A stretch of 64,000 bases of DNA, taken from positions 186,001 through 250,000 of the forward strand of contig QPGO01000002.1 in the NCBI GenBank assembly GCA_008632985.1, written 5' to 3'. The position numbers were made by a program, and so were the translations under genes. Shown here piece after piece: positions 1 through 61,600 of this stretch. The notes beneath the pieces were generated by a model. The model had not been told where the DNA came from, did not search any database, and was given only the letters and a program-made list of their open reading frames with translations. The first letter of the stretch is position 1; every line of letters starts with the position of its first letter. This stretch comes from Psammoneis japonica. Lineage: Eukaryota.

Positions 1-3000
1 CAATGATTGAAATTTTTTGACACGCGTGCTGATTGCATCCACAGATCTTCAACACACACAATTGCCAATTTTGTTTCTCAGTGGTCATTGAGCCACAAAC
101 AAACAAATCTTTTTTGTTTGTTTTGAGCTACCTGCGTGGCTCATTCTGTCCACATTTCAAACACTTGTCAAGAACAGTTTCTTTTTTTTTTCTTCCACAT
201 GTCCGATCTCTGCCTTTGTTTTAAGTTGCATGTGTGGCTCACATGAGTGTTCTCTCTGTGTGCTGCAGTTTGCTGGTTCATTCTGTTGTGGCAAAGGGAA
301 GTGAGCTTGGCAACATGTTTCTGAAAGGCGCACTTGAGCAAGCTTTGCACAGTGCGTCAGTTGACAAGACTTTTGAGACACAGCACCTTGTGACTTTGCT
401 CTTTGAAAAAGCTGTTCTCATCATTGCAGCAATGGTTTCCAGTGCTTGGAGCCTGGCAGAGAGAACTGCCTGTGCACTTGCCAAGCCCTGGATCAAGGGT
501 GGCACCAACTGTGCTTGTTGACTCTTGCTGTTGCTCATGCTCTCAACGTCCTTCTGTGCAGCAGATGCTTCCTGGACCATTGCACAGAGTGCTCAGTCTG
601 CATCATTGACAAACTGCACTTCAATCTGTGCATGCAAAATGATGAAAGTGGGTGTCCAACAGAAGGGTTCTGGCCAGCTGTTGTCATCTGACTGTTGCTG
701 GCAGCATTTTCTGCAGTTTGGCTCCAATCTTGGAATCATTGGCCACTTGAAAATGCCTCTTTACAGACAACATCAACAAATTGAGTGGTGCTCCAAACTG
801 GCATGTTCACAGGATCCGATGTCCAACTGCCTGTGGCTCCTCAGGAACTTGCAAGAATTTTTGACACCTGCCAAAACTGCCCCAGGATGGTCCCCTCAAG
901 TCACAGAGGGTGGTGTTTGGGCCACTGGTTGAAACTTTTGGATGAAAGGACATTGAGCCAATTTGGTTGTTGCAGATGATCATGACAAGCAAGCATTGCC
1001 ACACTTGCTTTTGTTTGTGCATGGAAAACACTGCCAAAGAAGAAAGAGCTTGTGCCTTTCCTTTCATCTTCATCAAACATGTCATCCAAGGCATGGGCAC
1101 CCACACAATGCACTCCACTTTGGACCTGAAAAGCATTTGCTGAAGTGTTGAATGCAAAAGAAACAAAGAAATTGAGTGAAAAGCTTGGATGATGATCAAA
1201 GGCATTGAATGAAGATGGCTTTCTTTGGGACACACACCTTGTGATCACAATGGTGTTCCAACATGCTCTCCAGGCATTTCTTGCACTTGGTGTTGAATGT
1301 TGCCACCACAGCAACCAATCCCATGGTCAACTTGAGTTCTGTTGTGTGCCTGCATTGTGGAAAGAAAAAGAATTGATTTCATGGGTTGTGGGCATTTTTG
1401 TCAAAAATCACAGCAATGGCCATGCGGACGTGGCCCAAAAGCACCATGTTGGGTCACCTGCTGTGTGGCTCATTTTGTCTTCATTTTGAATTTGTGTCAA
1501 GAAAAGCTTCATTTGTTTTTTTGCCTCCATTTGTCAGATCTCTGCTTTTGTTTTTTAGCCACCTGTGTGGCTCATTTTGTTCTCATTTTAAACCTCTCAA
1601 GAACAGCTTTGCTCATTTGTCTCCTTTTCCTTCCATTTTGTCAGCTCTCTGTCTTTGTTTTGCTCTGTCTCTGCTGCACCTGTCCTTTTTTCCTGCTGGA
1701 CGCTGCACAACTCATCCTCCGATCTGACACCCACCAACAACAATGGCATGCCCCTGTCACAATCCACTTTGTTGTCCAGGTCAGACATGCAACAATGACA
1801 AGCAACAACAACAAACATGCTCTCCAAAGACACCCTCATCTCCAGTGCTCTTCTTTCTCCATTTTGGCCCACACCCTGACAATGACTTTGGGAGAAGCAC
1901 ACCCCCAGTGCTGCAGGAAGAGAAGAGCACTGGGAACAGCAAAAAGAGCAGCTTAGATTTCAACTTGCCAAGGCATGGTCTTTGCATCTCATGAAGTGAG
2001 CAATGGTGCCACTGCTTGGAAAGCCACTGCCAGATGACAGAGGCAACTGGAAAGATTGTCTCATCTTCTTCCCTGTTGCCATTGCCTCAAATGAAGACAA
2101 TGGCCAGAGTTTGTCAGCCACACATCCTCAGCTCCAAGGGGTTTGTTCTGGTGTTGAGTTTGATGACATGTGTTGGGGACTCCAATTGGAGCAACAGGCT
2201 TGCCGGGTGGATGGCGCATGATGCACAGGCCAAAAACACTTGAGAAGATAAAATGGAGCAAACGGTGGTGCCCCCATGTCCCAGCAAACATTTTCCAAAT
2301 GCCAAGCCAGATCATTGTCATCACCACAAATGCACATTGGCTTGAGTTGCTGCTGCCTGCATGATGCTCACCACCCCAAATGCATTCAGTCTGCATTTGT
2401 TGAGTGGGTTGGCCCAGCTGTGGTGACTTTGCACTTTTGATTTGGGAAGCTGCCAGCCTTGTCTTGGGCAGCAGAAGCCCCTTGCATGATTCCTCCGCAA
2501 ACAAGAAGATGCCCAGCTGCACAAGGTGTGGAAGCATGAGGCCCACAGATGCAGCAAAGGAGATGTGCAGTTGTCTCACGATGGCATTGGAGGACTCCAG
2601 TGGGTCACCAGGGACACTCCAGCAGCCTTGGTTGGGGAGCAAATGCCTTGTCTTGTGTCAATGCAGCACCTTGTCTCTGTGACATGACTGGCTTTGGCCC
2701 ACAGCCAGAGCCAGCCTGTGAGGGCTGGAAAACCATCTGTGCAACTGCACAAGTGCTCCGTTGTCTTGGGATGGCATTGGATGACTCCATTGGGTCTCAG
2801 AAGATGCAATGACAACAATGGTTGGGAAGCAAAGGCCTTGTCTTGTGTCAACACAGCACCCTGTCTCTTTGACATGACTGGGTTCTTTGGCCCAGCCACT
2901 CCACCTGCAAGGACAAAAAAAACATCTGCGCAACAGCGCAAGTGCTTGGTCATTTTGGGATGGCTTTGGTGACTCCATTGGGTCCCTGAGGAGCCAACAA

Positions 3001-6000
3001 CAACAATGGTTGGGAAGCAAAGGCCTTGTCTTGTGTCAATGCAGACCTTTGTCTCTCTGGCATGACTGGGTTTGGCTTTGGTGCCACCCCACCTTCAGAG
3101 ACAAGAAAAACATCTGTGTGCTCAGTTGTCTTGGGATGGCTTTTGGTGACTCCATTGGATCTTAGAGGATGCAACAACAACAATGGCTGGGAAGCAAAGG
3201 CCATGTCTTGTGTCAGTGCAGCACCTTGTCCCTCTGACATCATGGCTGGGTTTGTTGGCTCAGCCAAGAACCAACTTGCAAGAAAGACAAGGGAGCCATC
3301 TGTGTGACAGCACAAGCTCTCAGCTGTGTTGAGATGGGCACAAGAGACTCCATTGGGTTCCCTGAGGAGGCAAGAACAACAATGGTTGGGAAGGAAAAGC
3401 CTGATCTTGGGCCAATGCAGCCACTTTTGTTTCTGATGTGATTGGCTTGCTTTGGCCCAGCCACCCACCTGCAGAGACAAGGGAGCTTTCTACACCCATG
3501 TTGCAGCACAAGTGCCCAGTTGTCTTTGGATGGCATTGGGTGCCTCCATTGTGTCCCAGGGGAGCCAACAACATCCAGCGCAGGGAGTCAGTGAATGGAA
3601 ATTCATGGTGTGGTTCCCTGTCTCTTGTTTTTGTGAAAAACCAAGAGAGAACAGAAGAGAATGACCCGCCATCAAGTTGCCCACTTTCTTTTGTGGAGGT
3701 CACTTCTGTGACACACTGGAGTCATTGTGACTCCAAAATTGTCACTTCACTGGCATGAAGGGTCTCCTGTTTCTGAGCTTTCTGGAAGAGGCGATTGTCT
3801 TTTGTTGGCAGCAGCATCACACCAAATGGCAAAAAGGTGTTGATTGAATGAAGTCCAGGAGCTGGGAGTGTGCAGTTTGAGTGTGAAAATTTCAAGAACA
3901 ACAAGAGCGCATCAATGTGACAAAAACAAACTTGTTGATTGCACGTGTGTGACATTGATGAGTGAATGATTCATTTGGGTTGTTTCAAACCATTCAAACC
4001 ATCATCATGTTGCAATGAAATCTTTGATTTTTAGAACAAAGTTGTTGCTGAAGAAGAGATGCTGATGGGAATCAACTGATGGTCAGGCTCACATTTTGGC
4101 CAAAAACACGAACTGTGGCTCCCTCACAAGAGACACGAAAAAATGCAAACTCAATGTCTGACAATGAGAGCAGTGGGGACAGGCAACAGCTGCTGGCAGG
4201 CTGAGGAACAGGAGCAAAATGCATGGAGATGGGCAATGATGGCCGACAGGGGCACACAATGAGCTGCAAAGAGGCAAGGAAGGCAGGTGGCAGAGAGGAT
4301 GAGGGTCTTAAGAAACACAAGACATGCACAAAACCTGGTCATTGGCACAAAGTTTCTCTTGTTGCGGGTGATGGTTTGGCCTGCCAAACAAAGAAGTTCA
4401 AGACAGATGTCATTGTGGAACAATGTTGTTGCCTGGTGTGGACAATCACGGAGAGAGCAAGAGTGGCTGCAAGGGAGGACACAAGGACTGAAACATCACA
4501 CCCATCATGTGGGGACTGCAAAGTGCTGCAGGAGCTGGTGGAGTGCAGGAGATGAACAAAAACAGGAAAAAAGGAGCATTGTTTGGTGCGCAGTGCAGAA
4601 ATGACAAAACAGACAAGTCAGACAATGAGCAGCACACAGCCAACGTGCGGTTGGGTTGACAAGACAATTGAACATCATTGTCAGAAAGTTGTTGCAAACA
4701 CGCGGTTGTTGAGACAGAAACAAGTGCAAGTGATGAGGTGGCAGGGTGATGGATTGGCCGCAGATCTGCTCAGTGCCATTTGGGCCGCAAGCAGCCAAAT
4801 CTTCCAGCATTGGATGCAGTTGAAAATTCACAGCAATGTCTGTCAATCTGTGGCATCCAAAGATTTGACTCTTGCTGTGCATTTGGCAGCAGCAACGCAA
4901 AGTTTGTCGTTGTTGACAACATGCCGGTGTGGCAGCAATGCCAAGGTTCATGTTGGGATTGCAGCTGCACAAAGCATGCATGCTTTTTGTGCTTTAAAAT
5001 CTTGATTTTCCCACACCCACGTGTTCTGCACAATTGCCACATTCAAACAAAATTTTCAATTGCAAAGAACACCAAAACAAATGACAAAGCTCTTCCGTTC
5101 AAACAAGTGCAAACAAATGCGAGCTGTTTTGACTGTGGAAGTTTTGTCCAATTGCGTTGCAAGCCCCAGGACAGCTTGGGGACAACTGCAAAGAGATTTG
5201 TGCCTCGTGCAAACTGGGGCGACATGTCTGAACAGACCAGGGCACCAACAGGGTGCAAAAAAGTTGTGGACAGATGCGCGCATGCTGGGGATGTGTGTGG
5301 AAACCATGGAAGAGCAACTTTTGGCAACAATTTCTAAAATTTCCATCCCATTGAAAGTTTTGCATCGTGCATGGGTTTTGTCAGCAGGGGTGTGCACATC
5401 ATCAATTCATCCGTGTCTAAAGTGGCAAATGTCTGTGGGTCAACATGTGTTGAGCTGAGTCACTCTTCTAAAGTTGCTGACAAAGAGAAATGCCAACATT
5501 TTGTGCTGAAACCATGCAACAATTTTGCACCGAGAAATGTGTGATCAAATGCAAAAATGATGATCATGAAACTTGCAGCTGCACTTGAGTTGAATGGGAA
5601 AAATGCTGGGACAATTTTTTTTGTCCAGCTGGCATGGAAAAAGTCAAATGTGTGGAGCTTGACAACTGGTCAAGGTGTTTTCTGGTTCTCAGTGAGCTGG
5701 TGCTTTGATGAACTTCAGATTGACAGCAGCAGCAATGGAGGAGAGCAACAGATTGAAGATGTTGAGCACATGTGAGATGAATCATGGGTTGCAGTGGCCA
5801 CAAGGCATCTGACAAACTCTCCACATGTGCGCTCCAGTGCAAACTCACAACACCCTCCACGTGCGCAGTCCTGTGCAAACTCACAAAACCCTCCCCCATT
5901 GCAGCCGGCCAATTTTGCTTTTCAGATCAACTGGGGACCTGCCAACTGCAATGCCCCAAGAATGAGAAGACCCCTTGCAGACTGCAAATCCATGTGAAGT

Positions 6001-7810
6001 GTTGCCACAGAGTCCAGATGCAAGAGAGAGTGGGGATGGCCACTTGTCGTCACTTCCTTGCATTTCATTTTGGTGTGGCATTTTTCATTTCATTTTTTCT
6101 GGAGATTGAAAGACATGCTGAGAAATGCTGGATCTGAGTGAATGCAGCCCAGCTCAACAGCCACAGCACCCCCTTTTGTGCTTGGACCTTCCCACACCCA
6201 GTTGACATGGCAGGTCAAGCCTCATCTGACATGCCACAGTGAGCCAAAGAGGCCAAACTTGTGCATTCTTACAAGCAACACATTCCAGCCCTGGGCTGGA
6301 CTCGTGTGGCACTGGGCTCACAGAATTCCATGTGCAAGCACATCTTCAAAATCAAATGAACGACCAAGTTTGTGGTGCAATTTTGTGTCTCTTGATGCTT
6401 GCATTTTTGAAAATCTGGCTGCCTGCCATTCTCAAGACATTTGAGAATGGCGCAGAAGAAAAAATGTCAAAAGGTGTTGAATGGATCACCCAACAATTGC
6501 GCTACAAAATGACACAAAAATTCCACCAAGGCAGTGCGAGGTTCCACCCGGAGCCATTTGTTGAGAAAGACAAGCAACTGGGCAAGCCGCCATCACACAG
6601 CTGTCTTTCCAGCATGGCAAATGCTTGTTCAGCACAGCAGATGAGAGTGGTGTCCTCTGCAGAAAACCACCAATTTGAAGGATGTTCTTCTCTTCCAAGC
6701 ACTGTTGTGGATGCCACGGAAGGTGTGCAAAGCAATGCACACAATGGGAAAAGTGATGCACAGGAACCAGAAAAATTCAAGTCTGAAGCACAAAAAACAT
6801 GCCAGGATCTGCATCAGATCCAACACAGAAAAGGATTGAGCTCACACAAATTTTGTGCCTGTCCAACATGTGTCACTTTCATGTTGCATTTCACATGCAC
6901 AATTTGTCACAGCCTCAGCAGAAAACACTTGTCAATGGAAAAACTTGTGACCTGGAAAAGCCAGCATTGTTTGACACAGATTTGACAAAATTGCAGCAAT
7001 CTCCAGCTCAGTGACACCACGTGTTTGACACAAAGAAAGACACACCAGTTTTTGCTGAGACAGAGCAAGAACAACAACATCAATTTCTGCATGTGTGCGA
7101 GCATCAGCAGCGCTGTTGACACATTTGTCATTTCACTGAAGCAAACCTCCCAACAGGACAGGTTCTCTTTCAGGAATTGACCAACGCGCTCATTGAGTGC
7201 ACAGGTCTGACTGGTCTCCTTCTTTGAATGATGATGACACAGCTCGTCAAAAGAAGCCAGGGCTCTGTGGGTGTCAGGCATTGCTTTGCCAAAAGCAGCT
7301 GCATTGTGGGACAACTCTGGAAAAGCACATCCACATGTTCTTTCCCCAGGGTTTTGTTCATCATGTTTCAAAGCCAGAGGGGCAAGCTGAGAAGCACAAG
7401 CAGACGGGTCTTGCTCAGCTCACCATTTTGGGTCCATGTGCCCAATCTTCCAAGTGGAGACTGGCAGTGGGAATGAAGAAGGCTGCAAGCAAATTTGAAG
7501 TCCACCAGGGACTCATGTTTGCTTTGTGTGTTTCTTGATGTTTTTGACAGTGACACTCTTGTCAAAGATGAAAGATGTCGTTGTGAGCACGTTGATGAAA
7601 GTGGCTTCAAACTTGTGGGAGCATCAAGACACCTTGTCCATGGTGTGGTGGCAACAAAAGCACAGTGTGGCAGGAAATTTGTGGAGCCGGTTGTGCCAAG
7701 GAGATGCCTGGGCAAAGAGACCTCGGCTGGTGCGAGTGCTCAGCAAAGACATGATTTCGGGTCTTTCCCATGCCGACGCTGCCCCATGGCTGGAAGCCAC
7801 AGGAGCTCAA
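1..7810. mobile_element. Degenerate repeat/transposon-derived block, CpG- and TpA-depleted (family not identifiable)
   Basis: TG/CA-saturated sequence; overlapping short ORFs in all frames rich in C/H/Q and almost without Tyr; internal repeats (about 130-250 vs 1455-1620; 2560-3560). Confidence 0.6.
2560..3560. repeat. Diverged tandem repeat, unit about 175-200 bp, about 6 copies
   Basis: Recurring ATGGCATTGG..GACTCCATTGGGT..ACAATGGTTGGGAAGCAAAGGCCTTGTCTTGTGTCA near 2581, 2771, 2960, 3135, 3333, 3529. Confidence 0.85.
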
Positions 7811-7811
7811 C

Positions 7812-8209
7812 TGACGCGTTCCAGACGTAGGTGGGAATCCGTGTGACATTGGGCCCGTAGACTTCTACGTGCGAGCTCCGTAGTAAAATTATACGGTAAT
7901 TAAAATGTCAATGATCGCCAACAGAAAATGAGGCAATTTTGCGAACGCACAAACTCGCCCATGATTGAAGTACATCATTTTTTACTTAGCCAGTTACATT
8001 CTTCAGACATTGAAGAATGTAACTGGCCTGTTATTGTTTCTATAAATTTGTTATATAAAACGTCTGGGGCTTCGCAAGACAGCGAGTCTGGACAATTTTT
8101 TTTTAACATCACACGTAGAAATGTACGTGCAAAATATACGACGGATGATAAAAATGATTTGTGTCACACGTCAGTACTACGAGCTCCCACCTAGGGCTGG
8201 AACGCGTCA
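7812..8209. repeat. Inverted-repeat-bounded AT-rich island (MITE-like, or abutting ends of two elements)
   Basis: 7812-7836 TGACGCGTTCCAGACGTAGGTGGGA is the reverse complement of 8185-8209 at 23/25; further inner inverted motif pairs. Confidence 0.6.
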
Positions 8210-8699
8210 ACTCCACAACACCAAACCAGAGCACCACAAAGCATTGCCTGTCATGGTCCAAATTCTCAGGAACAGGAGGCATCTTTTCCACAAGTAAAAA
8301 TTGGCATCACGAATGAATTGTCATTGTTGTCAACGAATGTCATTTGCAGCATGTTCGAAGCCAAGAAGGCGCGATGTGAGTGGCTTTTTTTTAAATTGCC
8401 TCGGAAGGCAAAAAGCGATGCACAATGGGAGGCATCTTTTCCACATCGTTCAGTCTTGGCACCAGAACCCGGGACTGAATCCCTGGTTTTTGAAATGTGG
8501 GTTTGAACCCCAAAATGAAAACACGGGATTGAAACCCGGGTTTTCATTCACACAGCTTGCAGTGCTTTTTCTGCGTAATTTTGCCATTTCTTAGAACCCA
8601 ACGTGACTTGGCTTCCCAGTTCTTGTGGAAAACAGATCACTTGATCCACTGCATGGCTGCTGCTGCTTGCAATGTTGAACAAAGAATTTGACATTTTAT

Positions 8700-10500
8700 G
8701 TGGTGTTGCTGTCCTGCTGTTCAATGAGACTTTTGATGTGATTTTTGCATTCTGTCTCTTCACCAGATTGATGGTGGTGTCCAATCAGTCTTGCGTTTGT
8801 TTGAAAACAGCTGAGTGTCTTCCCTGCCAAGCCCATGCAACAGTGCATCATGACAGTCAAGGAAACAGGTCTTCTTGCCGTTTGCGCCTGGTTGGCAGGG
8901 AAGTGCAATGGTTTCCCACAGGTTGCAACTCGAGTGCGAGTCCACCCCGCACCAAACACAGACCCTTGGATGCTTGTGGCTGGTGGACACCACATCAAAG
9001 TGACAACGCAAGTGTGCAGACGAGATTCATTTCCACCCTGCTGAGCATGTTGGCATTGTTCCAATGTCACAAAATTGCGAGTCATTGTCGTTTGTTCCGA
9101 AGCCGCTCTTCGTTGATGGTTTTGTTGTGCTGCAACCCGCATCACAGAGTCACCATGGCACAAACGTGCTTCAGGTGATGCTGCAGCATCTGTCTTGAGA
9201 GTTGTTCTCGGAACTCCCAGTGACCCGTTGGACTGTTGTCTTTCCAAGACAAGTCCAACCCGCCCTCCGCCACTTCCAAATGCATGTCATGCGCAATGAC
9301 GACAGCCATGGCCTTGCCGTGGTTCATGCAGAATGCCAATGCTTCCAAGAGCAATGGAACATCTTTGCATTTTTGATGTGATGATCCATTGAATCAATTC
9401 GTGAGCAAGTTGAAAGATGCAGATCACGGGCTTCATGTCATCTCGATTGCCCAGTGTCGCTTGCTCTCATTTCTGCCTCTTTCCTGACGCCTCGCACATT
9501 TGTTGCACTCATTGGGGGCATTCACAGCAGCAATGTTGCACGACGAGGTTGACTAAAATGAGCAAAGCACATGCTGGCATCCCTCAGTGCTGCATGTGGG
9601 TGCCACAGTCTTGACAGCAACACCGGATGATCAAACCTTGCTGCTTTCGATCTTGCATTGGATGGCGTTTGTTTTTTCTGAAAGTGCTTCCCTGGCACAC
9701 CTGAAGGCAGCCGATCCCTTCAACGTGCAAATGTGGCCAAGTGGCCATTTCTCCAATCCAGTCTGAACTGCAGTCATCATCAAAGCAGTTGTCACATGTT
9801 GTGTGTGGCTTTCCTTGGAATGTCTTCTTGGGTCCGGCGTCGTCACCCATTCTGCCAAAATCCGCCATTTGCCTGCTTGTTCCAAGATCATGCAGATTTC
9901 CATCGGGCCCATGGCACCCCATCCATCTGTCCTTGGGTGCAATTTGTGTCGGCGAACATGAGCCCGAGGTCGGATCCGGTGTGCATCTGACGCGATCGCT
10001 GTCTGACCGCCCTTGGTGATGCCGGGCTTTCCAACTGTGCGACCGTCAATCCCGCTGCCAGCTTCCCACAACCCGCATGGCCCCAGGTGGTTTTGTCACC
10101 ACATTGATCCAATTCTGCATGGTGTGTCATCGCATTGACATTGTGAGCTGTTGTTGCGTGTGTCATGTCACACTTGCAGGCCGGGTTGCACCCAGCTTCT
10201 CCTCTTCTGGGGGATGTCATGTTGTTGCACAGCTTCAGCACTCGCTTTGTTTGAAGCCAAAGTGAATGATTGATTGACGAGGATGTGTCTGAGTCGCAGT
10301 GGATCCACCAGCCATCCACCTGCGGTGAATGGCTCCGTCGCTGCCACCCTTGACGCCGTCTTGGACAGTTGCTCCATCAAATCTGAAAAGCTCTGGATGC
10401 TCACAAGTTTGAACTGGTGTCCATGCAAAGAGCACAGCTTCAACTCTCCCGCGGCGTGCAAGTTTGAATCTGTTTCTACTTCGCTGTAGAACGACTTTCT
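8700..10500 (-). mobile_element. Degenerate piggyBac-like DDE transposase
   Basis: Frameshifted minus-strand fragments ELDQCGDKTTWGH, KPGITKGGQ..SDAHRIRPRAHVRRHKLH, KPHTTCDNCF, NHGKAMAVVIAHDMHLEVAEG, WEFREQLSRQML and a Cys-rich C-terminus resemble piggyBac-type transposases (recognised from memory, no search run). Confidence 0.7.
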
Positions 10501-10791
10501 GGGGTCTGAGTTGACACCCGACCGTGTGGTTCACACATTGGCAGAATCAATTGACAGAAAAACAAAGCATCCCGATTTTTCATCCGTTGTTTGAAGGGTA
10601 AACAGTCATTGACATCCCGACTAAAACCTCTGAGNTAATCATCAATGATTATTGGATCTTTCCGTTGAACGGCTGACGGCTACGGTGGTGGAAAAGCCTN
10701 GGACTGAATCCAGGGTTTTTCGGGCGCCCAGACATGAAACTTGGTAACGAATGATGTAAGTAAAATTGCGTGATGGAATGGCACTTTCAAA

Positions 10792-34180: not shown

Positions 34181-34200
34181 CAGAGACTAATACAACTAAC

Positions 34201-39059: not shown

Positions 39060-39705
39060 AAAGTAGTCATGATAATGGTAACAGATTATAACGCTCGAGT
39101 TTTTGCTTTGACGGTGAGTCAAAACAGTCTCTAACTGCGACTCCGTGACGGCGAAGAACGGGACTTTGGTTGGCTGGCTCGCAACAGCAACAGGACGCAG
39201 CCTGATGCAATGGGGAAGGAGGAATTTCTCACAGGAGAGTCTGAACGATGATGGCTTGGGTCGCACAAGCAGATGGATCATTCATGACCATAGCGCGACA
39301 CTCTAGAGAAATCAGGTCGAAAAATGCAGCAAGCGGGCGGAAAATATATACTAGACGCTTGAGAGTGGCAAAACGTAACCCAATTCTCTTACTTGGGTGT
39401 ATTTCAGCAAGCGCTTGAAGCATGCCCACATCTGCCAAACCCAAATCCGTCGAGAGTACTCGCATTCGTGCCGTGAAATATGCATGAAACCGAGAGAAAA
39501 AATCACAAGGATAGAGGGCTGGTTGACATAAGTGCTGTAGTCACATTGAAAACATTAAAAGCCCATCCAATTCACTTATCTGGGTACCACAGAAAATATT
39601 AAAGCCATGCCTCCTCCATCAAACCCTAATGCAAAGAGGGTACCCCCATCTCCGAAGAGAACTCGTTATTCGTCCAAACGGTGGTCGTGCGCAAATGTTC
39701 CAGCT
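39060..39705. repeat. Unmutated paralogue of 31050-31710 (possibly a decayed minus-strand coding segment)
   Basis: See 31050-31710; retains TpA and CpG. Confidence 0.8.
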
Positions 39706-45839: not shown

Positions 45840-47400
45840 GATTTCCATGTCATTGGCGATGTCAACCCATGCCGCTCACTCGGTGTTTGCCATTCAGCTT
45901 TTAGCAGAAGTGCATTCTCAAACAGCAGCTTTCATAAGCTCCATAAGCTCTGTGGCATGGGGTGACAAACAAACGGCTTCCACGAGGCACTCATCACCAA
46001 CACTTCCCTCCACAGCATGGTGCAGGTGGCTTTGAGGGTGCAAGCACTGGCGAAATGCCGGGCTCCAATGAAGATGACTGTGCCAACACCATCCAGTCCT
46101 TTCTTTAAAAAAAAGCTGCTGTGCTCATGCAACGCAAGTGGAAATCGATCCAGCCATGTGAGCGAGCAAGATGCAAAAGAAAACAAAACAGAGCAAGTGC
46201 GAGAGTGCCTTTTTTAAACACCGGCGCAAAGCCATGTTGGCCAGCAGAAATGTGGAGGAAGAGTTACAAGACACAAAGGGTCAAGCCTGTCCTCACAGAA
46301 TGAGCAGGTGCTGCATGTGCAATCAAGAAAATTCATGCACCAGGCAAATGTTGCTGATTGCCATTTTGGCGCCACCTCAATCGCTTCCTTTTTGGCAATC
46401 ACAAGCCAACATAAATGCCGCAGCTGGTTGTGGCTTTGTGATGGGGCATTGGGTGCTTTCAGCCAATCTGGATGAATCCTGATTCGCCCATCTCTGTGTC
46501 TTCAGGCTGCACTTCTTTTTGAACCGTGCCTGTTTGACAACAATTTTGTCAAGGCAAAGGCAGGCATGATGCAGAGTGTCTGCCAAGAGCTCATGGTCTT
46601 TGAGGCCAATTTCACATTGAGTGCATTGGCAGCAAACTGAGTCAGCACAGAGTTGAGATTCTTTGTCAACTCATTCAACTGTTTTTTTCCAAATCAGAAC
46701 CTGCTCCACTTTCAAACTTCTTGGTGCACTTGTTGCAACCAAGACAAGGGATTTGAATTTGTGCTGGAGATTCATGGTTCATGCTAACAGTGCTGCTGCA
46801 ATCAAGTCTTCTTCCCCTGAAAAAGGGAGCACAGATTGTTGGTGAAACGTCAACAATGTGCTTTGCCACCAGCCTTGCAAGAAAGTGGCTTTCAAAGCCC
46901 CAGGGGAAGGCAGTCATCAATTTGTGGCAGATTTGGACAACCACTGGCATCCTGGAAAGTTTCTCATCATGCTTGCATTGACAAACTTTTGTGTCGCTGC
47001 TTGCCAAATGGCAAATCCTCTGAGCTTTTGTGGTGGGTGCAATGAGTGGCCACCTGAGCATTTGTTTCATTGTTGTTCCAGTGGCAACACAACTGGGCAC
47101 AATGCTTCCAGTGCTGCAGGCATGCCTTCACATGTGGAGCTGAGGGTGTGCAAGGCTGCAAGGCTGTGCATTCCTGCTTGCCAATGGCACTGATGCAGTC
47201 ATGCCTTACAAACTTGACCACATCAACTGCAGATGCCAACTTGAGCATCAATTTTGCCAACAATGGTCTCTTGCCAATTTTCCCAGCACTTGGGATTGAA
47301 TGCCTTTTTCATGCTTTTTGCTGCTGTGCCTCTGCTGCCATTTTTGGCAGCAGCCCAAAGCCCCAAAGAGGACAAAGGGGGGAGATGAAGTCCCCAAGCC
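45840..47400. mobile_element. TpA/CpG-depleted degenerate block
   Basis: Abrupt compositional switch near 45840. Confidence 0.45.
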
Positions 47401-47410
47401 CTCTCCAGAT

Positions 47411-48780
47411 GCTCTCCTGTTGAGCTCCATTTTGCCATCGTCATCAAGCAAAGATGGAAACTGTCACAAATTCCTTTGAAGATTGAGAACAAAATGCACA
47501 ACAATGTGATCAAGAAGTTTCACCACAGAAGCAATCACAGGCCACAGGCATGGCTGGTCGCATCAATGCCAGCATGCGCACACCCTGAGAAACATTCCAA
47601 GAAGGAACAATGAAGTGCAAAATGACATCGAGTGTCGACTTCCTGTTGTTCAGCATTCTGAGCCTTTTTGGTCACATCAGAGCATCCACTCTTGCAGCAA
47701 GGACCAATGACAGCTGATGATCAGACAGTGACCCATCACTTGTGCAACCGCCTGTGCTCACCTGAGAACTGCCACTGGCTGCTCAGGATGCAATGACCCT
47801 CATTCCTTGTTTTCTCCTCTCTTGATGAAGTCCCAAAGCCCTGGGTCATGCTCCAGGAATCCAACAAAAATGCAAGCAATGCTCTCCTGTTGAGCTCCAT
47901 TTTGTCGTCATCATCAAGCGAAGACTGCAACTGTCGCGGATTCCTTTGAAGATTGAGAATGAAATGAACGACAATGCAAGCAAGAAGTTTCACCGCAGAA
48001 GCAATCAGGCCACGGGTGCGGCCAGTTGCATTGGTGCCAGCATGCGTGCCCCGAGAAACATTCCAAGAAGGAACAATGAAGTGCAACATACAATGTCGAG
48101 CATCGACTTCCCATTGTTCAGCATTCTGAGCCTTTGCGGTCACATCAGAGCATCCACTCTTGCAGCAAGGACCAACAACAGCTGACAATCAGACAGCAAC
48201 CCAACACTTGTGCATCTGCCTGCGCTAAAACCTGAGAACTGCCACTGGCTGCTCAGGATGTGATGATGCTCATTCCTTGTTTACTTCCGTCTTGACGAAG
48301 TCCCAAAGTCCTCCAGAGGTCATGCTCCATGAATCCAACAAAAATGCAAGCAATGCTCTCCTGTTGAGCTCCTTGTCGTCTTCGTCATCGAGCAAAGACG
48401 GCAACTGTCATGGTGTCCTTTGAAGATTGAGAACAAAATACAAGAGGATGCAATGAAGGAGTTTCATCAAAGAAGCAATCAGGCCACGGGTGTGGCTGGT
48501 CGCATCAATGCCAGCATGCGTGCCCCGAGAAATGTGCCAAGACAGAAAAACAATGCACAGCGTCACATCAAGTGTCAACGTCCCATTGTTCACATTGTTT
48601 GGAGCCTTTGTGGGCATCTCAGAATGTCCCCTCTCACAGCAAGGGCCAACGACAGACAACAATCAGACAGTGCTGTAGCCTGAAACTTGCACGTCTGCCA
48701 GGCTCACATGAGAACTGCCACTGACTGCTCAGGATGCAATGATCCTCATTCCTTGTTTTCTCCTGTCCTGATGAATTGCG
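47411..48780. repeat. Tandem repeat, about 470 bp x3, overlapping the 3' end of the LRR gene
   Basis: GCTCTCCTGTTGAGCTCC at 47411, 47881 and 48355; CTCATTCCTTGTTT near 47799, 48269 and 48745. Confidence 0.9.
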
Positions 48781-50088
48781 GATTGTTCATCAAGAACCAA
48801 AACATGAAGTTCTCATTGCTGCGCGGACCTGCCAAGACGTGCGGCCAAAGAGCTGCAGGTGCGTCGTGGCGATGCAGCAAGTGTCTTCCTGCTTTGTTCA
48901 TTTGAATGCAGCAATCTACTTCAGCTTGCATCTTGTCTTGCGGCTTCTTGCGCATCGGCACAACAGCACGTTCAATGGAGTGCAACGCATCTCCAATGTC
49001 CTTGGGTGTGGTTGTGAGCGACGAACAACCATCCAAGTCTAGATGACAAAGACTCGGAAGCTCAAGAATTTCTTTTAGAGTTGCAGTCAACTGCTCGCAC
49101 CAAAGTTCCAAGTGCTCCAACTTTGTGAGCAATCCCAGCTTGGGAGGCAGCTCAACCACTTCGAAACACGAGGTGACATCTGACGCAGTGAGATTGACCA
49201 GATTGCTCACGGCGTTTTGCAAGAATTCATCCAAGCCGTGGACGCGGTTTGGAAGTGTGAGTTCTTGCAGCTGTGTCAGCTTCCCAATCTCAATCGGCAG
49301 TTTTGTGAGTTTCTCGCAATGTCTGAGATTGAGTTCCTCAAGTTGCTGTAACTTTCCAATTTCAGGGGACAAGTGAGTGAGGGAGTTGCACTCACGCAAA
49401 TGCAGCTCCTCCACCAAGTTTGTCAATTGCCCCCATTGATCTGGAACCTGTCCAAGAATTTTGCACTCTGGAGTGTGGTGTCTCAGTTGCTGCAGCTCTC
49501 AGATCCCCACTGTTGGCAACTCTTCGAGGCTTTCGCATTCGAAAATGATCAGGAGTCTGAGTTGTGTCAACCACCCAATTCCCGCGGGCAAACTTTTGAA
49601 AGCCCTGCAAGTTTGCAAGTTTAGCTCCTTCAACTTTGTCAAACTGCACATTTCGTCGGGCAGTGTAACAAGGGTGTTCGTGTCACATAAATTGAGTGCT
49701 TTAAGTTGCTGCAGCTGCCCGATTTCAGGTGGGACCCACTCAAGCCCGATGCAGCAGTCCAAGGTCAAAACGACAAGTCGATGCAACAAGCCAATTTTGC
49801 GCGGAAGCTCAGCCACAATGCCCGAGCTCAAACTCAGTTTTCTTGCATTGACACACTTTTTGTGACCTTGTTCATGATCACCGTAAGAGACACAATCGCG
49901 GTTTTCTGACAACGACCGCTTTGACTCTCCCGTGGCTTGTGTCAACGCAGCGAATGTTCGGTCGGAAAGACGATCGTCGTCGTCGTCCACATTGTTGTTG
50001 TCTTGTTCCCTTGGAAACGCATTGTGAGAGCAAGGCACCCACTTAAAGCGAGCGTGTTGATAAAAGAAAAGCGACGATTTCAAATGCC
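48746..50088 (-). pseudogene. Leucine-rich-repeat protein, frameshifted and hypermutated
   Basis: LPxEIGxLxxLxxLxLxxC repeats in two frames; C-terminal MNKAGRHLL..LWPHVL motif; no Tyr in the last 226 aa. Confidence 0.85.
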
Positions 50089-54097: not shown

Positions 54098-54619
54098 GTC
54101 AAGAAAACCATTGGAATGAGAGGGAGCCAGAAAGGCAGGGAGCTGCAATATATATAGGAAAGTAGGAGCTGAGTAGGGATGGCCAGTACTATAGGGTACC
54201 CTCGTTTTACCCAACAGTGTCACTGTGTTTCCCAGCATTATTAAGATTTTTCCTGGACACATTTTCAACCACAAGCACCCAATCAGTCTAGAGAGTGGCT
54301 AATCCGTGAGAAATAGTTCAGCGCATATAAATGACAAGCACTGAGCATGCCATAACGAATACCCTCTAGTGTGGACCCCATTTAAGCAAGAGAGCAGAGA
54401 GCGGTGTGGTACAAAAAAAATTTAAAAAAAAAAAACAGAAACGACGGCATCAAAGTAGACTACGCAATAATACATCGCAAGAGCTACAACCGTCATCGAG
54501 CCCATTGACCTACGTGCGGAAGCAAATTACACACAGACAAAGATTGCCATGTCGTAGAATCCATTGGGAACAATGATCCACAGCACCAGATCTAGCTGGT
54601 TAGATCTGTCCTCCATCCT

Positions 54620-57600
54620 CACTCGGTCACCAGTCTGTCACTCACTGTTCTGCTTTGACCCAGCCCATGACGTGCTCACCAGCCAGCACTGGCATTCTCT
54701 CATTGCTTGGCTTGGAGTCCAGGCTCCAGCAGCAAGCTCCTGGACCAGTCCTGCTCGAATCCAAGGGGTGCAATTTGGGGCACAAGAACTTTGGGGTGCA
54801 AAAACAGGCATCCTGCCTGAGACCAACACGCAATTTTCCTGCATTGAGTGCGCCAAAACTGCAACTCATTTGTTGCAAGCCTTTGACACACAAAGGTTGG
54901 TGCAATGATGATGATGATGTGTTTGCCAGAGCAATGCAGCCGATGGTGAGGTTGTCACCAAGGATCCTGACAACCATGGCAATTGGATTTGCTGCATCAA
55001 TTGTGCCAGCTCGCATCCTCTTTTGTGCGCCAATGATCTTCTCCAAGGCTTTGATCTGGGCTCCAACAGCCCTGCCTTTTTTTGGTGTGAGCACTCGCAT
55101 CCCAGAAAAGGAGTCCAGAAATTGACAACTGGCACTTTGAGTTGCTGGTCACCATTCCTTTGTCTTCTTCAAAGACTTGCTTGCAAATGAGTTGGCCAAA
55201 GCCACACAATTTGACAAGTTCTTTTTGGGTGCAGATGTCACAGCTCCAGATGACAAACCTGCCATGTTGCACACACCTGCGGCACACCCCTTGTTTGTGA
55301 AATTGAAAGAAGAAGGTGATGATGGCTTTGTGCTGCATCTGTGGGTGCAAGCATGGCATGGACACTTTGATCTCAGTGGCACAAAGCAGTCGCCTGATCA
55401 AGTGTGGCTTGATGCACACATCTTCTGCCCTCCTTTCAATGCTTCCTGTGGATGCCACGCTTGCTTCATGGCAATGTCGTCCAAGAAAGAAAATCATCAA
55501 ATCATGGAAACAATTTTAAGAGCTTCCATTTCCTTCTCCCCTGACATCTTCTGCAAAGCCTTGCTTCAAGCACGGTGTTGACTGCCACTTGCTGCTGTGC
55601 TCATTCCATCTGGCTGCACCACATGATGAGTGCACCCCAGCCAGTTCTCCAGGTCTTGTCCATTGCTGTGCAACTGTCCAACAATGCAGAGGAAGCAGCA
55701 AGAGCAATTCATCACACCCATGGCAATGCATCTGGGGAAAATCTGGGTGTCACAGCCTTCCTGTCCTTGTTTTTGTGAGACAGCAACTGGCGCATTGGCA
55801 AGAGCTTCTCCACTCCATTTTCCCCTGACATGCCATTTGTTGCTGTGCCAATTTTGTCTGGCCGCACAACACAATGAGGGTGTCCCAGCCAGTTCTCCAG
55901 ATCTTGTCATTGAGAACCAATCAGCGGAATGTCACCGGCAAATGGGCTGGCAGCCCCACTTGTCCGCTGCTGCACAACCATCTGATGGCACAGAGGCAAT
56001 GGCAAGAACAATGCACCACACCCACAGCAATGCATCTGGGAAGAAAACCCAATTGCTGCCACCTTCCTGCTCTTGTTCTTGTGAGACAGCATGAGAGTGG
56101 CAATGCATGCAACAGCAAAGTTTGACAACAACAATGTCAGTGTGGTGTTGTTCTTTCTTGTGTTCTGGAAACAATCAATTGCCGCACACAAATTTCAGAA
56201 ACAGGCCACATTTTTGTGTTTAAAAAATTTGTTGAATGCAGAATTGCTGTCTTGTCAAAATTTTGGATTCCTGTGCTGCTGACTCACAACATTGTGCGAC
56301 GCACACTGCACAAACATTGTGACAACACGCCATCATCACAAACACCTGCCATTGCACGACAAAGCAGTTGTTGTGTCCATCTGGTGTTGTTTTCAGCACG
56401 GATGATTTTGTGGATGAATGATGCACGCAATGAGGCAGAGCAGCAAATGTGCTCTCTGTCCACAGCAGTGCAAAAAACGCACAGCACGTGAGTGCCATGC
56501 TCATGCTGCTGGCAGTGCATTGTGCTGCTGCTTGCCAGACTCAACCATCTCAGCCATCTGAAATGTGGGGCCAAGCACCAAGAAAAATGGTGAGCAAGCA
56601 CAGCAGCTCTGTGGCAGAGTGCACCATTGATTGGACATGTCTCATGCTGTTGCTTGTCATGCAAAGGCCAAGGAGGTGGTCAGCCCTGGGTGCAAATGAA
56701 AAAGTGACAACCATTGGGCACCATTGTTGTGCTGCCACTTGCCAGACTCAACCACCCCCATGGTGAGATCACATTGTCCTGTGGCTTGCTGTGCAATTGA
56801 TTGGACATGCCTCACACTGTTGATTGTTGTGCAAAGGCCAATGAGTTGTTGGCTGCCACTGGCACAAATGCAAGGTGAGAGCCTTGCGAGCACTCCAGTT
56901 TGGCATTGTTGACTTGCTCTGATGCTGCTGGGCATCATTGTGTTGCTTCTTGGCAGACTCAACCAGCCAACCCCTCCAAGCTGTTGCTGGATCAAGTGCC
57001 AAGGAAAATGGCTGGAGTGCACAATGCAGCCATGCAAGTTGTGCGCTGTTTGTTGGAAACACTTCTCACATTGTTTGTTCATTGTGGCAAAGAAAAAGAC
57101 AGTGAAAAAACATTGCAACAAAACTGCAACCCTTGCTGCAGCCAATGAAGCAAGTGCTTGCCACTCCCAGGGAGATTTGCACATTTGTGTTTTGGTGCAC
57201 CTTGTGTCATCTTGTGCTTGTGCACTGACCGGTTGTTTGTTTCTGCACACACAGTGCAGGTGGTGCAAGGCAGGAAGCTCACTTGATCCACGCCTTGGTC
57301 CACCAAGATGACGGCAAACATTTCACTCAAGCTTGCCTGGACACAAACCCTGTCTTCCCAACACAGTGCTGTGGCCTCAAGTGTGTTGTTGCACTTTTGG
57401 ATCAAGCAGCTGCAAGGTGCTGGAAAAGAAAAAGCCAGTGTGTGGGTTGGCAAAAATGCACTGAGTGCAATTGCCAGTTTTTGAACTGTGTCACGAGTGC
57501 TGTCAAAAGGCTGATTTGTCATCTGGAGTTAATTGAAGCACAGCTTCTCATGGAAATGAAAGTTGTTCAGAGCACTGTGGCTTCTCATTGTTCAGAGTTG

Positions 57601-60600
57601 TGCTCCAATTAAAAATGGACGTGCTGCATTGGGCACCCAAACATTGTTCAGAGTTGTGCTCTGATTGAATGGACACAATTGCAGCAGTGCTCTGAATGTC
57701 AGCACAGTGCTCCAATTTGCAAATTCATGCTCTGAGTGCAATGCTTTGAGCACATCTCCAGAGCTTTGAATGAAAAAATTTGCTCTGATTGTGCTCTGTG
57801 CAGGCATTGTCATCTCAGTTGACTGTGTCATTTGCCCCAAATGTCCCACACTGTGACAGGACAAATTCAAGCAAAGCTTTGCTCAGAACAAAACATTTCA
57901 ACCATGAATGAAGTGATTCTCACTTGCAGCGATGATGCTGAGTTGTGTTTGTCTTGCTTTCTTGTGACTGTGCTGATGCAGTGGGGGGGGGGGGGGGGGG
58001 CTGTCTTTGTTTTTCAGAAAAGCAGCAGCTTTGGTGTTGCAGGGTGGGCTTTTTCTTGTTGTTCTGTGAGCTTCAGCAATTGTGAAGCCACAGCATTGTT
58101 TGCTTGTGCCCACATGAGATGGGTTGGATGACAGCTCTGAAACACTGAGCAGCTGCAAAGTGGCACCTCACAGACAGCAGAGCAATGACAAGGTTGTTTT
58201 TTGCTTCTTCTTTTTGAAGATTTTGACATGGCCCCATTGGTTTCTTGCCACTGGGGCTGGACCAAGTGCACTGGAAATGACCTGACAGTGCCAACAAAGT
58301 TGAGAAGGGGGGACTTGCATGTTGTTTGCACTGTCAATTGTCAGCTTTCAAACTCAGGCAAAGTTTTGTAGTGTGCTTCATGCTGCAGGTGCTGCAGTGC
58401 ACAACCAAGTTGCTTGGAAGTGCAAGCAAATTTTTGAAGCTGATGTGAGTGGGTGTGGAGGGGGCACTGGCAGCTGTCTGTGGCAACTTGCTTTTCAATG
58501 CTGTGGCAACTCTCTCTCTTCCATTGTCTGCAAGACAAAGATTGCACTGCAACCCATTCCACATTTTCCCCAGATTCACCATGGCATTCAAGTGAGGTTG
58601 TTTGCAGTGTTTGTTTTTGAGTGCAAAAATGTTTGCACTCACACCCAGCTGCCAACAAAGTGAGAACATCAGGCACCATGACAGAAGCATGGATGACAGC
58701 AATCTGGCCAACATGTCTCCAAAATGCAGCAGACCATCCTCAAACATCTGATGTGTGTGTGACCTTTGACATGCAACAAACACAAAACAAATGAGAGTTG
58801 ACAGACAAGCCACCTCCATCATGGACTTGCTGCTTGATGACTTTGCTGGGGTGAAGCACAGTGAAATCAAGGAAAGCCATGCAAAGTCATGCAAAGTCAC
58901 AAGCTGTTTGGCCAAAGAACTTGACCAAAAAAAGCAGCAATGACCTCCCATTAAATTTGTCTCAAGAATGGTGTGGGGCAGGTGGATGTTCAACAACTTT
59001 GAGTGCAGACAGCTGCAAATGCACCACAAACTTGCACAGAGTCCCGCCTGGTGCTGGAATGCACCGACTGCAGATTGCCTTGCAACAGAAGCAAATGAAG
59101 GTGCAAAGCTGGCAAAAGCTTTTCACAGCTTCTTCCATGGCAAAGAGAGCCATCTCCAAGTGCATCACACAGCAGATTTTGGAGCCTTTCAATGCCACCA
59201 TTTCTCCATCTGTTGGGTCAGCTGGTGTTTTTTTTTGGACTTTGAAAATGTGTGCTGAGAGTTTCAGTTTGGTGCCCAACAACAGCAGCCTTGCAGAGCA
59301 TCCATGACAGGGCAGCTCAATGTGGGCAGATTTGTGGAGAAAAAACTGTGCTGTGACTCAAGACAGCCTGTTGACTTGTCTGTTGTGTGATCACATCTGG
59401 GTCCAAGCAGATTCGTGCTGGTTCATTGTTCAAGTCAGAGTTGAAAGGAGACTGTCAACAAGAAGCAAATTGTGGATGGGTTTTGGTTGGCACAGGAATG
59501 TGCAGCCAGAGGAGAGAAAGCATGTGTGGTTCTGATCACATCTGACAGCAGTGATTGTGGTCATGCTGTGACATGTCTGTGGGACACTGGCATGCCCATC
59601 ATGATTTGTTGCCCTGGTGTGGCTGCAAAAGCCCCAGCTGACAATGCCAATTTCATCATGTCTTGAAACTTTGATGTTCTTCTTGGTGGCCACCAGGGAG
59701 CCTTGATCAGGAGGATGACAGCATTCAGCGCAATCAGCTGAGCAAAGGTGCGCAGCTCAGCTGCCAAAAAGAAAGGTCATGACAAGCCCAAAGTGGTTTT
59801 AAAGCAGTCGGACCTTCAAGCTCATGGGAAGTTTCCCTTGTTTGGCAGAGTTGTGCTGAACACTCAGTGCTGCAGCATGGCAGAAAGAATTGATGGTCTG
59901 GTCCAGCTGGGCTGACAAGGTGAACATGGCACACAATTTTTGTGAGAAGGTCACAGCAAAAGATCACAAGAGCCACCAGGATGTCTGCACCTTGGCAACA
60001 CAGAGAAACTTCACAGAGTGGGGAGAACACAAACTCTCAATGCTGGACAAGCCTGTGATCAAAGTTGAGAATCAGAAGGATGGAGCCACAGCTTTGTCAT
60101 GCAAATCTTGTGCACAATTGACTTGCTGCCAAAAAAGGGGCTGGATGACTGTGTTGCCTGCAAGGTTCTAGAACAAGCTGATGATGCATCAGGAAACAGG
60201 CAACACTTCTGTTGCTTCCTCTTCATTGGGCAGAAATGGCATTGGGGACAATCACCACAATGGCAAATCATTTGATTGTGGCCAATTGCAGCACAAGGTC
60301 TCACTTCAAATGGTCTGGGCCACCAATCTCAGCACACATCAGCATGTGGGGTCATGGCTTTGAGTTTGTCTTCCCCAAGAACCCATGTGATGCCAACAGG
60401 AGTGCTTTGCCATTTTGTTTTCACCCAGCTTGGGACACTCCCAAGCACTTGTCTGTTCATCAAACCCTTGGGGCTGTCAGATGGCTGAAGAGGGAAAAAC
60501 CAATGTCATTTGCCAAAAGGCACTCTCTCATCTCAAAAGGAACAAGCCAAAACTTTCCAAGAAATGCTGACAAGTGGCATTTGATGGGCTGCAACAACCC

Positions 60601-61600
60601 CGTTGGCAGCTGCTCAGCCAAACATTGTGCACCCACTCACCCAATCAAATGAAACCTGCTGGCAGTGTGGCGGCTTTCCACACTCCAGAAATCAAAGCTT
60701 GCGAGCTGGCCAAAACAGCCTTGGCATCAGATCAAGAAAATGCAAAGACAAATGAAAGAAACCTGAGGAACTTGGAAAAGATTGACCTCTGGGCATCTCC
60801 AGGGTTCCTTTTGCATGACCTGCACATGACTCAAGCCTCTTTGCTGACCTTCAGCAATCACCTGCTCACGTTGGCATTGAAGGCAACAAAAACAAAAATG
60901 ATCTTACACAAATCTTTGTCATGAGCAAGTTCTGTTGTCAAATCAAATCACACAACCTGTCTTGCCAACAACTTTGAAAACATTCCTCAAACAATGAGAG
61001 CACATGTGGCAAATTGCCACAATCTCTGCTGATGACAGAGACCGTCATGATGGCTCTTGCTGCAGCAAGAGTGCAAAGTCAAGCTTCAAGCAGTGGCCTC
61101 TTCTCCCACAACCACCTGTCTGCCTCTTTCAAGATAGAGACCAAATTGTCAAGACTTTTGTAAAAAATTGCCACGAAAAATGCTGTGTGTCATTTTGACA
61201 AACTGCCTCTGCTGCAGTGCTTGTGCGGATGCTGCGGCCCACATCTTGATGTCCTGTCCTGGCACTTTCCCTGTCTGCTTTCATCTTTGTCTTTCCATTG
61301 ACACTCTGAGAATTGATGGTTGCAGCAGTGCCACCCAACTCAGCAAATTTGACCTCTGGTGGATCCACCACACCACTCATTTTGACAAATGTCCAAGCAG
61401 CCAACAGTGTGTCAAATCCAATCTTGCCAAAGCCCTTGCTGCCTGCAAGAAAAAGAACAAGAAACCTGCAACAAATGGCAAATGGCTGGTTCTCTCAATC
61501 CACCAATCTTGGACATGGTGGAAACAGGCGAACTCACAAACAACAACTAGCCACACCTCATCTTCTCCATCAAAAAAGCAAGACCACAAACAACAAAGTG
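54620..61600. mobile_element. Large TpA/CpG-depleted degenerate block with internal duplications
   Basis: TG/CA-saturated; duplicated units at about 55580-55790 / 55830-56090 and 56490-57050. Confidence 0.55.

Follow-up and report, generated by a model that had tools for sequence, protein, structure and literature searches.

We analysed 64 kb of DNA from Psammoneis japonica (contig QPGO01000002.1 of assembly GCA_008632985.1, positions 186,001 to 250,000 of the forward strand; this whole stretch is called the window, and its first letter is position 1). Six sharply bounded blocks, with a share of ∼40% of the window, have nearly lost the dinucleotide TA, are depleted of CG and are correspondingly rich in TG and CA. 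The sequence indicates that transitions converted the TA and the CG of the blocks to TG or CA in place, because mass balance, simulation and differences between duplicated copies within blocks all point in this direction. The blocks are probably non-coding and silent domains that have been rewritten in place by a hypermutator acting at TpA, together with the decay of methylated CpG. An original prediction, made from the letters alone, had proposed such a second, domain-restricted A:T to G:C process at TpA in addition to CpG decay. This proposal is upheld by all three kinds of evidence. Its authors knew of no earlier description of such a process. However, a 2026 preprint reports TpA to TpG/CpA hypermutation in the chlorarachniophyte Bigelowiella natans (Mettrop et al., bioRxiv 10.64898/2026.01.13.699255) and the process is so far known to have been measured directly in that one other alga only.

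Loss of TA and CG in six bounded blocks

We located low-TA segments with a table of observed/expected (o/e) dinucleotide ratios in sliding 1-kb windows and a scan for gaps between successive TA dinucleotides. Six segments were found, at 1-7851, 8201-10601, 27801-30151, 31401-34151, 45951-49701 and 54551-61651, with a TA o/e of 0.00-0.10 and TG and CA o/e of 1.6-2.2; in the same table CG o/e was 0.00-0.30 in four of the blocks and 0.4-0.7 in the other two. Pooled over 25,805 bp, the six blocks contain 67 TA (o/e 0.039) and 363 CG (o/e 0.24), with TG at 1.83 and CA at 1.79, as against 1,498 TA (o/e 0.62), 1,977 CG (o/e 1.00), TG at 1.14 and CA at 1.16 in 35,105 bp of non-block DNA, a set from which the 300-bp margins next to blocks were dropped. 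GC content is equal in the two compartments (0.483 in blocks and 0.475 in non-block DNA). Block by block, TA o/e lies between 0.03 and 0.07, and is thus saturated, while CG o/e is 0.13-0.21 in four blocks, 0.39 in block 5 and 0.59 in block 2. The gap scan found 34 TA-free runs longer than 250 bp in the window, all but one of them inside blocks. The longest, of 2,123 bp (27868-29991), would arise by chance with a probability of ∼1e-40 at the TA density of non-block DNA.

Block edges are sharp, to within ∼100 bp, both in the gap scan and on reading of the sequence. The blocks had been placed correctly to ∼100-150 bp in the original prediction, except for the right end of block 5, which differs by dinucleotide, since TA stays low to ∼50,050 and CG is back from ∼47,500. 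The right edge of block 2 is undefined because an assembly gap sits there, with a single N at each of 10635 and 10700 and a run of 266 N at 10792-11057. Block 3 begins 130 bp past the stop codon of a dihydroxyacetone kinase (DAK) gene and ends ∼370 bp before the next ATG; blocks therefore occupy intergenic space, leaving short flanks of normal composition.

The sum of TA, CG, TG and CA, that is, of all pyrimidine-purine (YpR) dinucleotides, is 6,251 in the blocks and 6,231 is expected from the non-block density, an agreement to within 0.3%. Scaled in the same way, the blocks have lost ∼1,034 TA and ∼1,090 CG (∼2,124 in all) and have gained ∼2,144 TG and CA. Transversions would have upset this balance, and the conserved YpR total therefore argues for transitions, which would have altered ∼8% of block bases (∼2,124 of 25,805). 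We also simulated the conversion in neighbouring DNA, assigning TG or CA as the outcome with equal strand probability. Converting both TA and CG raised the correlation of trinucleotide composition with that of the blocks from 0.72 to 0.97, whereas conversion of CG alone gave r = 0.864 and of TA alone r = 0.861. The claim that CpG decay is insufficient by itself is borne out by this comparison.

Duplicated sequences within blocks carry a further trace of the conversion. Alignments of tandem duplicates within blocks, 2,165 bp in all, contain 121 adjacent double differences. Of these, 50 pair CA of one copy with TG of its partner, and the second most frequent class has 7 members. Independent transitions would be expected to yield ∼3-6 such CA/TG differences, and outside blocks there were none among 12. 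Such discordance is expected where an ancestral TA or CG was converted on one strand in the first copy and on the opposite strand in the second, so that conversion would postdate duplication. A ∼670-bp element with one copy lying across the left edge of block 4 and another in normal DNA provides a proxy for the unmutated state. In the half of the alignment that falls inside the block, the block copy has CA or TG at 11 of the 14 TA of the normal copy and retains none of the 14, with three changes in the reverse direction; in the half outside, 6 of 12 are CA or TG and three are kept, with seven reverse changes. This comparison across a boundary suggests, in a supportive way, conversion of TA inside the block. 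Coordinates of the blocks and of the other features are collected in Table 1.

Table 1. Positions of the blocks, repeated elements, insert and reading frame discussed in the text
Feature	Position	Strand	Remarks
Block 1	1..7811	.	17 TA in 7,810 bp, TA o/e 0.03, CG o/e 0.18; extends past window start; 6 read-through frames without Pfam domain
Block 2	8210..10600	.	Continues block 1; TA o/e 0.06, CG o/e 0.59; stops at assembly gap
Block 3	27869..29990	.	1 TA in 2,121 bp; between DAK stop codon (27737) and next ATG (30368)
Block 4	31400..34150	.	TA o/e 0.06, CG o/e 0.19; adjoins 3' end of 1,034-aa SET-domain open reading frame
Block 5	45950..49700	.	Strong CG depletion only at 46,000-47,500; TA depleted throughout and on to ∼50,050
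Block 6	54601..61600	.	12 TA in 6,981 bp, TA o/e 0.025, CG o/e 0.13; no Pfam family above cut-off in 6 frames
Tandem repeats, diverged	2527..3586	.	∼190-bp period, block 1; used in the test of CA/TG differences
Tandem duplication, diverged	47408..48775	.	∼470-bp period, block 5; 80.5% identity over 909 bp; ∼93% in purine/pyrimidine coding
Repeated ∼670-bp element, copy across block 4 left edge	31034..31709	+	Aligned to 39033-39704
Paralogous ∼670-bp copy in normal DNA	39033..39704	+	Local TA o/e 0.65; proxy for unmutated state
MITE-like insert (miniature inverted-repeat transposable element), 398 bp	7812..8209	.	25-nt terminal inverted repeats, 92% complementary; 29 TA (o/e 0.86), 24 CG (o/e 1.39)
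Leucine-rich repeat (LRR) reading frame	48746..50083	-	Block 5 right margin; one in-frame stop; LRR_14 71 bits (cut-off 40) in read-through

The bases of the blocks were compared with Logan contigs of the public runs over 26501-46400. There are three such runs, all from one sample and study, and the DNA run (X1) possibly comes from the same sample as the assembly, so that it serves as a check on the assembly rather than on the biology and does not represent an independent isolate. Three contigs of this run, covering 27129-29395, 29457-33154 and 33219-34216, differ from the window by one, three and five substitutions, respectively, and reproduce 4.7 kb of block sequence with these nine differences. 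The original prediction had named a lack of read support as grounds for its own dismissal; blocks 3 and 4 are reproduced in these contigs, and an assembly artefact is therefore ruled out. Word depth in this run is 56-62 over blocks 3 and 4, equal to that of the adjacent genes, as expected of single-copy DNA. All nine substitutions in the three contigs sit in block DNA, and eight of them switch between TA, CG, TG and CA states (five between CG and TG or CA, one between TA and CA, and one adjacent pair between TG and CA). The single difference in block 3 is at a CpG.

Confinement to domains and content of the blocks

Non-coding DNA outside the blocks keeps both dinucleotides. Three introns of 86-160 nt, recognised from spliced contigs of the cDNA-like run (X2), have a TA o/e of 0.87-1.30 and a CG o/e of 0.82-1.03; contigs of this run leave out an 86-nt stretch bounded by GT..AG at 43141/43228. 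Gene flanks of 142-899 bp have a TA o/e of 0.56-0.89, and non-block stretches of 1.8-3.3 kb that are poor in open reading frames (ORFs) one of 0.57-0.75. Conversion of TA and CG is confined to domains. The same run does not cover 27829-29820, 31149-33804 or 45757-46400, although absent cover does not show that these parts are silent.

The MITE-like insert divides what is otherwise one block into blocks 1 and 2. Immediately around the insert, TA o/e is 0.00 (7400-7811) and 0.13 (8210-8700). The insert carries an internal perfect 17-nt hairpin (7989-8027), and we found no second copy of the element within the window.

The original prediction had the mutator aimed at repeats or heterochromatin, and that the blocks are transposons or repeats is not supported. 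We scanned 106 ORFs of at least 100 aa, as well as 36 frames read through with stops replaced by X, against Pfam. Neither set gave a domain of a transposable element (TE) or virus, such as a reverse transcriptase (RT), integrase, transposase or capsid. Matches below threshold were seen to RTP801_C (26.1 bits, cut-off 27) and, also below their cut-offs, to DUF3262 and DUF5360. Similarity between blocks was not detected by blastn self-comparison or by comparison in purine/pyrimidine coding, on both strands, and the repeats found on comparing the window with itself are local tandem duplicates and the one 670-bp paralogue. Searches of the window for RNAs returned no tRNA and no Rfam family. The conversion has changed only ∼8% of bases, and a recently coding TE should therefore have stayed recognisable. 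The blocks appear, on this evidence, to have been non-coding from the start or to be old, and they may be too degraded for TE or viral domains to show. They lack codon periodicity, with a median period-3 signal of 1.8 compared to 3.8 outside.

The LRR reading frame at the right margin of block 5 differs from the rest of the block DNA in having a period-3 signal of 7.3-9.0, against the block median of 1.8. It has a TA o/e of 0.08-0.12 and a CG o/e of 0.57-0.74, and its TA-free part is without tyrosine. The frame is of a cellular type and may represent a host gene that is being eroded by spread of the mutator.

The 106 ORFs counted above run from stop to stop on both block strands and reach 262 aa, with family support for the LRR frame alone; their length follows from the loss of TA, since both TAA and TAG contain this dinucleotide. 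Block 3 contains (GA)n and (CT)n microsatellites at 29400-29440 and 29750-29770, where the contigs of the DNA run break (29396-29456 and 29740-29778). Within block 4, a piece at ∼33,170-33,250 has a word depth of ∼3,900 in this run and continues into several loose ends; it is a dispersed high-copy repeat. Its minus strand carries, by eye, what we take to be a motif like a tRNA T-arm, and ARAGORN calls no tRNA at 33,170-33,250.

Genes outside the blocks encode the DAK, a CWC27-type cyclophilin, HOP/STI1, a PAS/LOV protein and a 1,034-aa SET-domain protein, and have few introns. The closest named homologues of the window genes are from the diatom Seminavis (38% identity) and the oomycete Aphanomyces (43%), in searches of which two of three took only longer homologues and left out those of normal length. 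The DAK of B. natans has 39% identity to the window DAK over 44% of the query, and bacterial LOV domains rank top for the PAS/LOV ORF in a search of PDB. Among names of protein clusters, the one organism to appear was Proboscia alata, by an accession on P0197, with a hit over 24% of the query. The 1,034-aa ORF (34201-37305, minus strand) ends 50 bp from block 4 and matches SET weakly, at 22.8 bits against a cut-off of 22.4. Across 34249-35861 the run contigs fall into at least two divergent alleles or paralogues. A region of tandem repeats at 37700-38700, with units of ∼96-216 bp at 78-88% identity, has unusual o/e ratios of 1.27 for TA, 1.9 for CA and 1.7 for GC. Its very strong period-3 signal peaks at 66.7, each strand carries long ORFs, and word depth in the cDNA-like run is in the thousands. 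Near-perfect short tandem repeats also occur in normal DNA at 16020-16251 (∼115 bp, 99%) and at 18050-18534 (∼108 bp, 98%), the second falling within a 365-aa ORF (17663-18760).

Context preference, mechanism and alternatives

The dinucleotides AA/TT have an o/e of 1.28 in blocks and 1.14 outside, and are thus not depleted; the process is specific to TpA rather than acting at WA (W being A or T) in general. In block 2 and the LRR margin, TA o/e is 0.04-0.12 while CG o/e is still 0.57-0.74. Loss of TpA is faster than, ahead of and separable from loss of CpG. Residual TA are unevenly spread over flanking contexts. Relative to the non-block density, survival is 0.35 for TTAA, 0.17 for CTAA/TTAG, 0.095 for GTAA/TTAC, 0.085 for CTAG and 0.013 for ATAT, ratios which are approximate as the baseline is mostly coding DNA; GTAC has no survivor in the blocks, where ∼73 would be expected. 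The effect of the flanks on TA survival is roughly additive over the two strands, and the hexamer TTTAAA holds 8 of the 67 residual TA. For CpG, survival is highest in GCGC (0.67) and lowest in TCGA (0.12).

We propose that a local hypermutator converts A:T to G:C at TpA on either strand, giving TG or CA, until saturation, and that ordinary decay of methylated CpG converts CG to TG or CA beside it. Base composition would remain unchanged because the TpA process gains GC and CpG decay loses an equal amount. In the TpA step an enzyme of the TadA/ADAT type, of the kind considered for B. natans, would deaminate adenine in DNA to inosine, and the target would be silenced or foreign chromatin. In the tRNA substrate of TadA/ADAT enzymes, A34 is always preceded by the conserved U33, which would explain a rule that requires T before A. 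The CpG part would reflect deamination of 5-methylcytosine (5mC) in methylated silent chromatin. A role of the process in defence may be suggested by analogy.

Several observations weigh against this proposal. The evidence consists of composition, a few paralogues and nine polymorphisms, with no de novo mutation among it, and mostly coding DNA from the neighbourhood stands in for the 'ancestral' state. Numbers in the paralogue test are small, with one-sided Fisher p values of 0.09 and 0.07, which makes it suggestive at most. The preference on the 3' side, TAY > TAG > TAA, matches none of the deaminase preferences that we checked. A runs test showed no clustering of TG and CA by strand (z from -2.1 to +2.4 over the six blocks, much as in non-block DNA); processive single-strand tracts of the sort that many deaminases leave are thus not visible, though saturation may have erased them. 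The target class seen in B. natans, viral or foreign DNA, is not matched by recognisable genes here, and the blocks appear to be single-copy. Finally, the MITE-like insert is unmutated, and therefore either it is very young or the mutator is not continuous on the whole domain; an unmutated insert would fit episodic action, without proving it.

Other chemistries could in principle give the same dinucleotide changes. The original prediction had offered patch repair of the polymerase-eta kind, in which T:G mismatches from 5mC deamination recruit non-canonical mismatch repair that mutates WA. One trigger would then couple both losses, and TA and CG are indeed lost from the same blocks. However, the WA prediction fails, given the AA/TT ratios above. 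Roughly half of the changes that polymerase eta makes at A are transversions, for which a YpR total kept to 0.3% and the 11 of 14 paralogue TA found as CA or TG leave little room. Loss of TA is moreover complete where loss of CG is partial, in block 2 and the LRR margin, so that it does not depend on waiting for CpG deamination events. Such repair is disfavoured by these findings, and we consider it very unlikely. Chemistry on the thymine side, by a TET/JBP-type oxidase or another modifier that acts on the T of TpA (and on 5mC) and causes mispairing with G and a T to C change, would leave the same signature, as TA to CA or TG is silent on which strand's base was hit. The T of TpA and the 5mC of CpG are both 5-methylpyrimidines before a purine, and one enzyme class could perhaps serve for both. 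The depletion of TA and that of CG are nevertheless uncoupled in block 2 and the LRR margin, and evidence of such a modification in the blocks is absent; 5-hydroxymethyluracil is, to our knowledge, not strongly mutagenic for T to C. We regard this route as unlikely.

The remaining explanations do without a local mutator. If the DNA were foreign, or selected, and had always avoided TA and CG, for instance against a nuclease or TA-targeting transposases, sharp edges (∼100 bp) and the absence of any homologue that could stand as an unmutated ancestor, except for the one 670-bp element, would be natural. However, the CA/TG discordance of in-block duplicates places conversion after duplication, the repeated element shifts its composition midway, at the edge of block 4, and the window and the DNA run differ at YpR states of the blocks. 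As the blocks lack codon periodicity (1.8 against 3.8), there is nothing obvious to select, and the mutation model recreates their trinucleotide make-up from neighbouring host DNA; native composition or selection is largely refuted and highly improbable. TA and CG both carry base modifications in some protists, and systematic mis-calling of modified bases in heterochromatin might have been suspected, more so with all runs from one sample and study. Against an artefact of this kind stand the contigs of the DNA run, which were assembled independently, match 4.7 kb of block with nine differences and have gene-like depth, and the patterns in diverged duplicates and the paralogue, which are evolutionary and not per-read, so that we give it almost no weight. 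The blocks are also the sole long non-coding stretches of the window without codon periodicity, as they would be if a mutation bias acted genome-wide and were hidden in genes by purifying selection. But both dinucleotides are retained in introns, short 5' and 3' flanks, ORF-poor non-block DNA and the MITE-like insert. We therefore reject a genome-wide bias hidden by selection, which has hardly any remaining probability. In-place rewriting by a TpA hypermutator together with methyl-CpG decay is left as the probable explanation.

Relation to known systems and significance

In mutation-accumulation lines of B. natans, 302 nuclear mutations were reported. Of these, 231 lay in one integrated region from a nucleocytoplasmic large DNA virus (NCLDV) and one virophage region, and 230 of the 231 were A to G or T to C changes, all at TpA (10.64898/2026.01.13.699255). 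Regional rates were ∼1,000-fold over background, in some lines only, and the genome has 124 clusters depleted of TpA and enriched in CpA and TpG; an ADAT2 homologue was proposed as a candidate (10.64898/2026.01.13.699255). When the cluster thresholds of that preprint were applied to the window, 95 of 248 1-kb windows (250-bp step) qualified, in runs that cover each block. Under the same thresholds none of 2,001 windows qualified in 80 metagenome loci (570 kb) around CWC27 homologues, a set that says little about relatives, as it comes from diverse organisms, many of them GC-rich, at identities of at most 44% (54% for one 143-residue fragment).

The two cases share the rule of TpA to TpG or CpA on either strand, the restriction to transitions, the sharply bounded regions and the same long-term footprint. 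They differ in the organism, in the saturation of the blocks here, with a TA o/e of 0.03-0.07 compared to a Rho of 0.45 for the NCLDV region, and in the strong CpG decay seen here, the term 'CpG' having no occurrence in the preprint text (10.64898/2026.01.13.699255). The reported targets there are viral, whereas the blocks here are without viral or TE domains and the process has apparently spread into a cellular LRR gene. The mutation rate was measured directly in B. natans, while here the process is known from sequence alone. Full-text literature searches, which covered few subscription journals, found no description, for diatoms or other stramenopiles, of TpA depletion or of repeats hypermutated from A to G.

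The closest functional analogue is the repeat-induced point mutation (RIP) of ascomycete fungi, with the opposite chemical direction. RIP also acts by dinucleotide-specific transitions restricted to domains, leaves sharp aberrant blocks and can leak into adjacent unique DNA. It reportedly changes C to T at CpA and so creates TpA (PMC2621366), and it lowers GC, whereas here TpA is destroyed (o/e 0.04), CpA and TpG are made (o/e 1.8) and GC is unchanged. RIP targets duplicated sequences above a length threshold. The blocks here are single-copy by word depth and contain local tandem duplicates. Decay by 5mC deamination resembles the present case in the CG o/e of 0.24 against 1.00, with a matching gain of TG and CA, and in five of the nine differences from the DNA run, which are between CG and TG or CA, but it covers only half of the signature (r = 0.86 alone). 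The ADAR and APOBEC deaminases of animals likewise generate clusters of transitions in selfish DNA, and for ADAR the preprint mentions a preference for a U preceding the edited A (10.64898/2026.01.13.699255). Their substrates are RNA or single-stranded replication intermediates, and the clusters that they leave in retro-copies are coordinated by strand. The blocks show neither strand clustering nor an RT domain, and the change would have happened in situ, in chromosomal DNA.

Before the 2026 preprint on B. natans, no cellular system was known for context- and region-specific A:T to G:C mutation of chromosomal DNA. The TpA process would be the mirror image of fungal RIP. GC content does not change, and scans based on it will therefore miss a large reshaped fraction of a genome. 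The end state, which lacks TAA and TAG stops and Tyr codons, also gives rise to long spurious ORFs that mislead gene finders into over-calling. The blocks supply natural substrates, reporters and flank preferences with which the enzyme could be identified; if the proposal is true, the sparing of TTAA is the first sequence-level read-out of its flank preference, and a natural DNA adenine deaminase that acts on chromatin would interest base-editing research. With the same signature in another organism, saturated and beside CpG decay, the process would not be one alga's peculiarity. It is possible, and we put this forward tentatively, that TpA-directed adenine deamination of DNA, beside CpG methylation, is used widely among eukaryotes, and has been for a long time, to inactivate silent chromatin permanently. 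Two or more distant protist lineages would then have it, among them the rhizarian B. natans and the present organism, whose closest named matches are stramenopile. In the latter it would be complete over ∼40% of the locus, would have spread into a host LRR gene, and would run faster than CpG decay while sparing TTAA-type sites.

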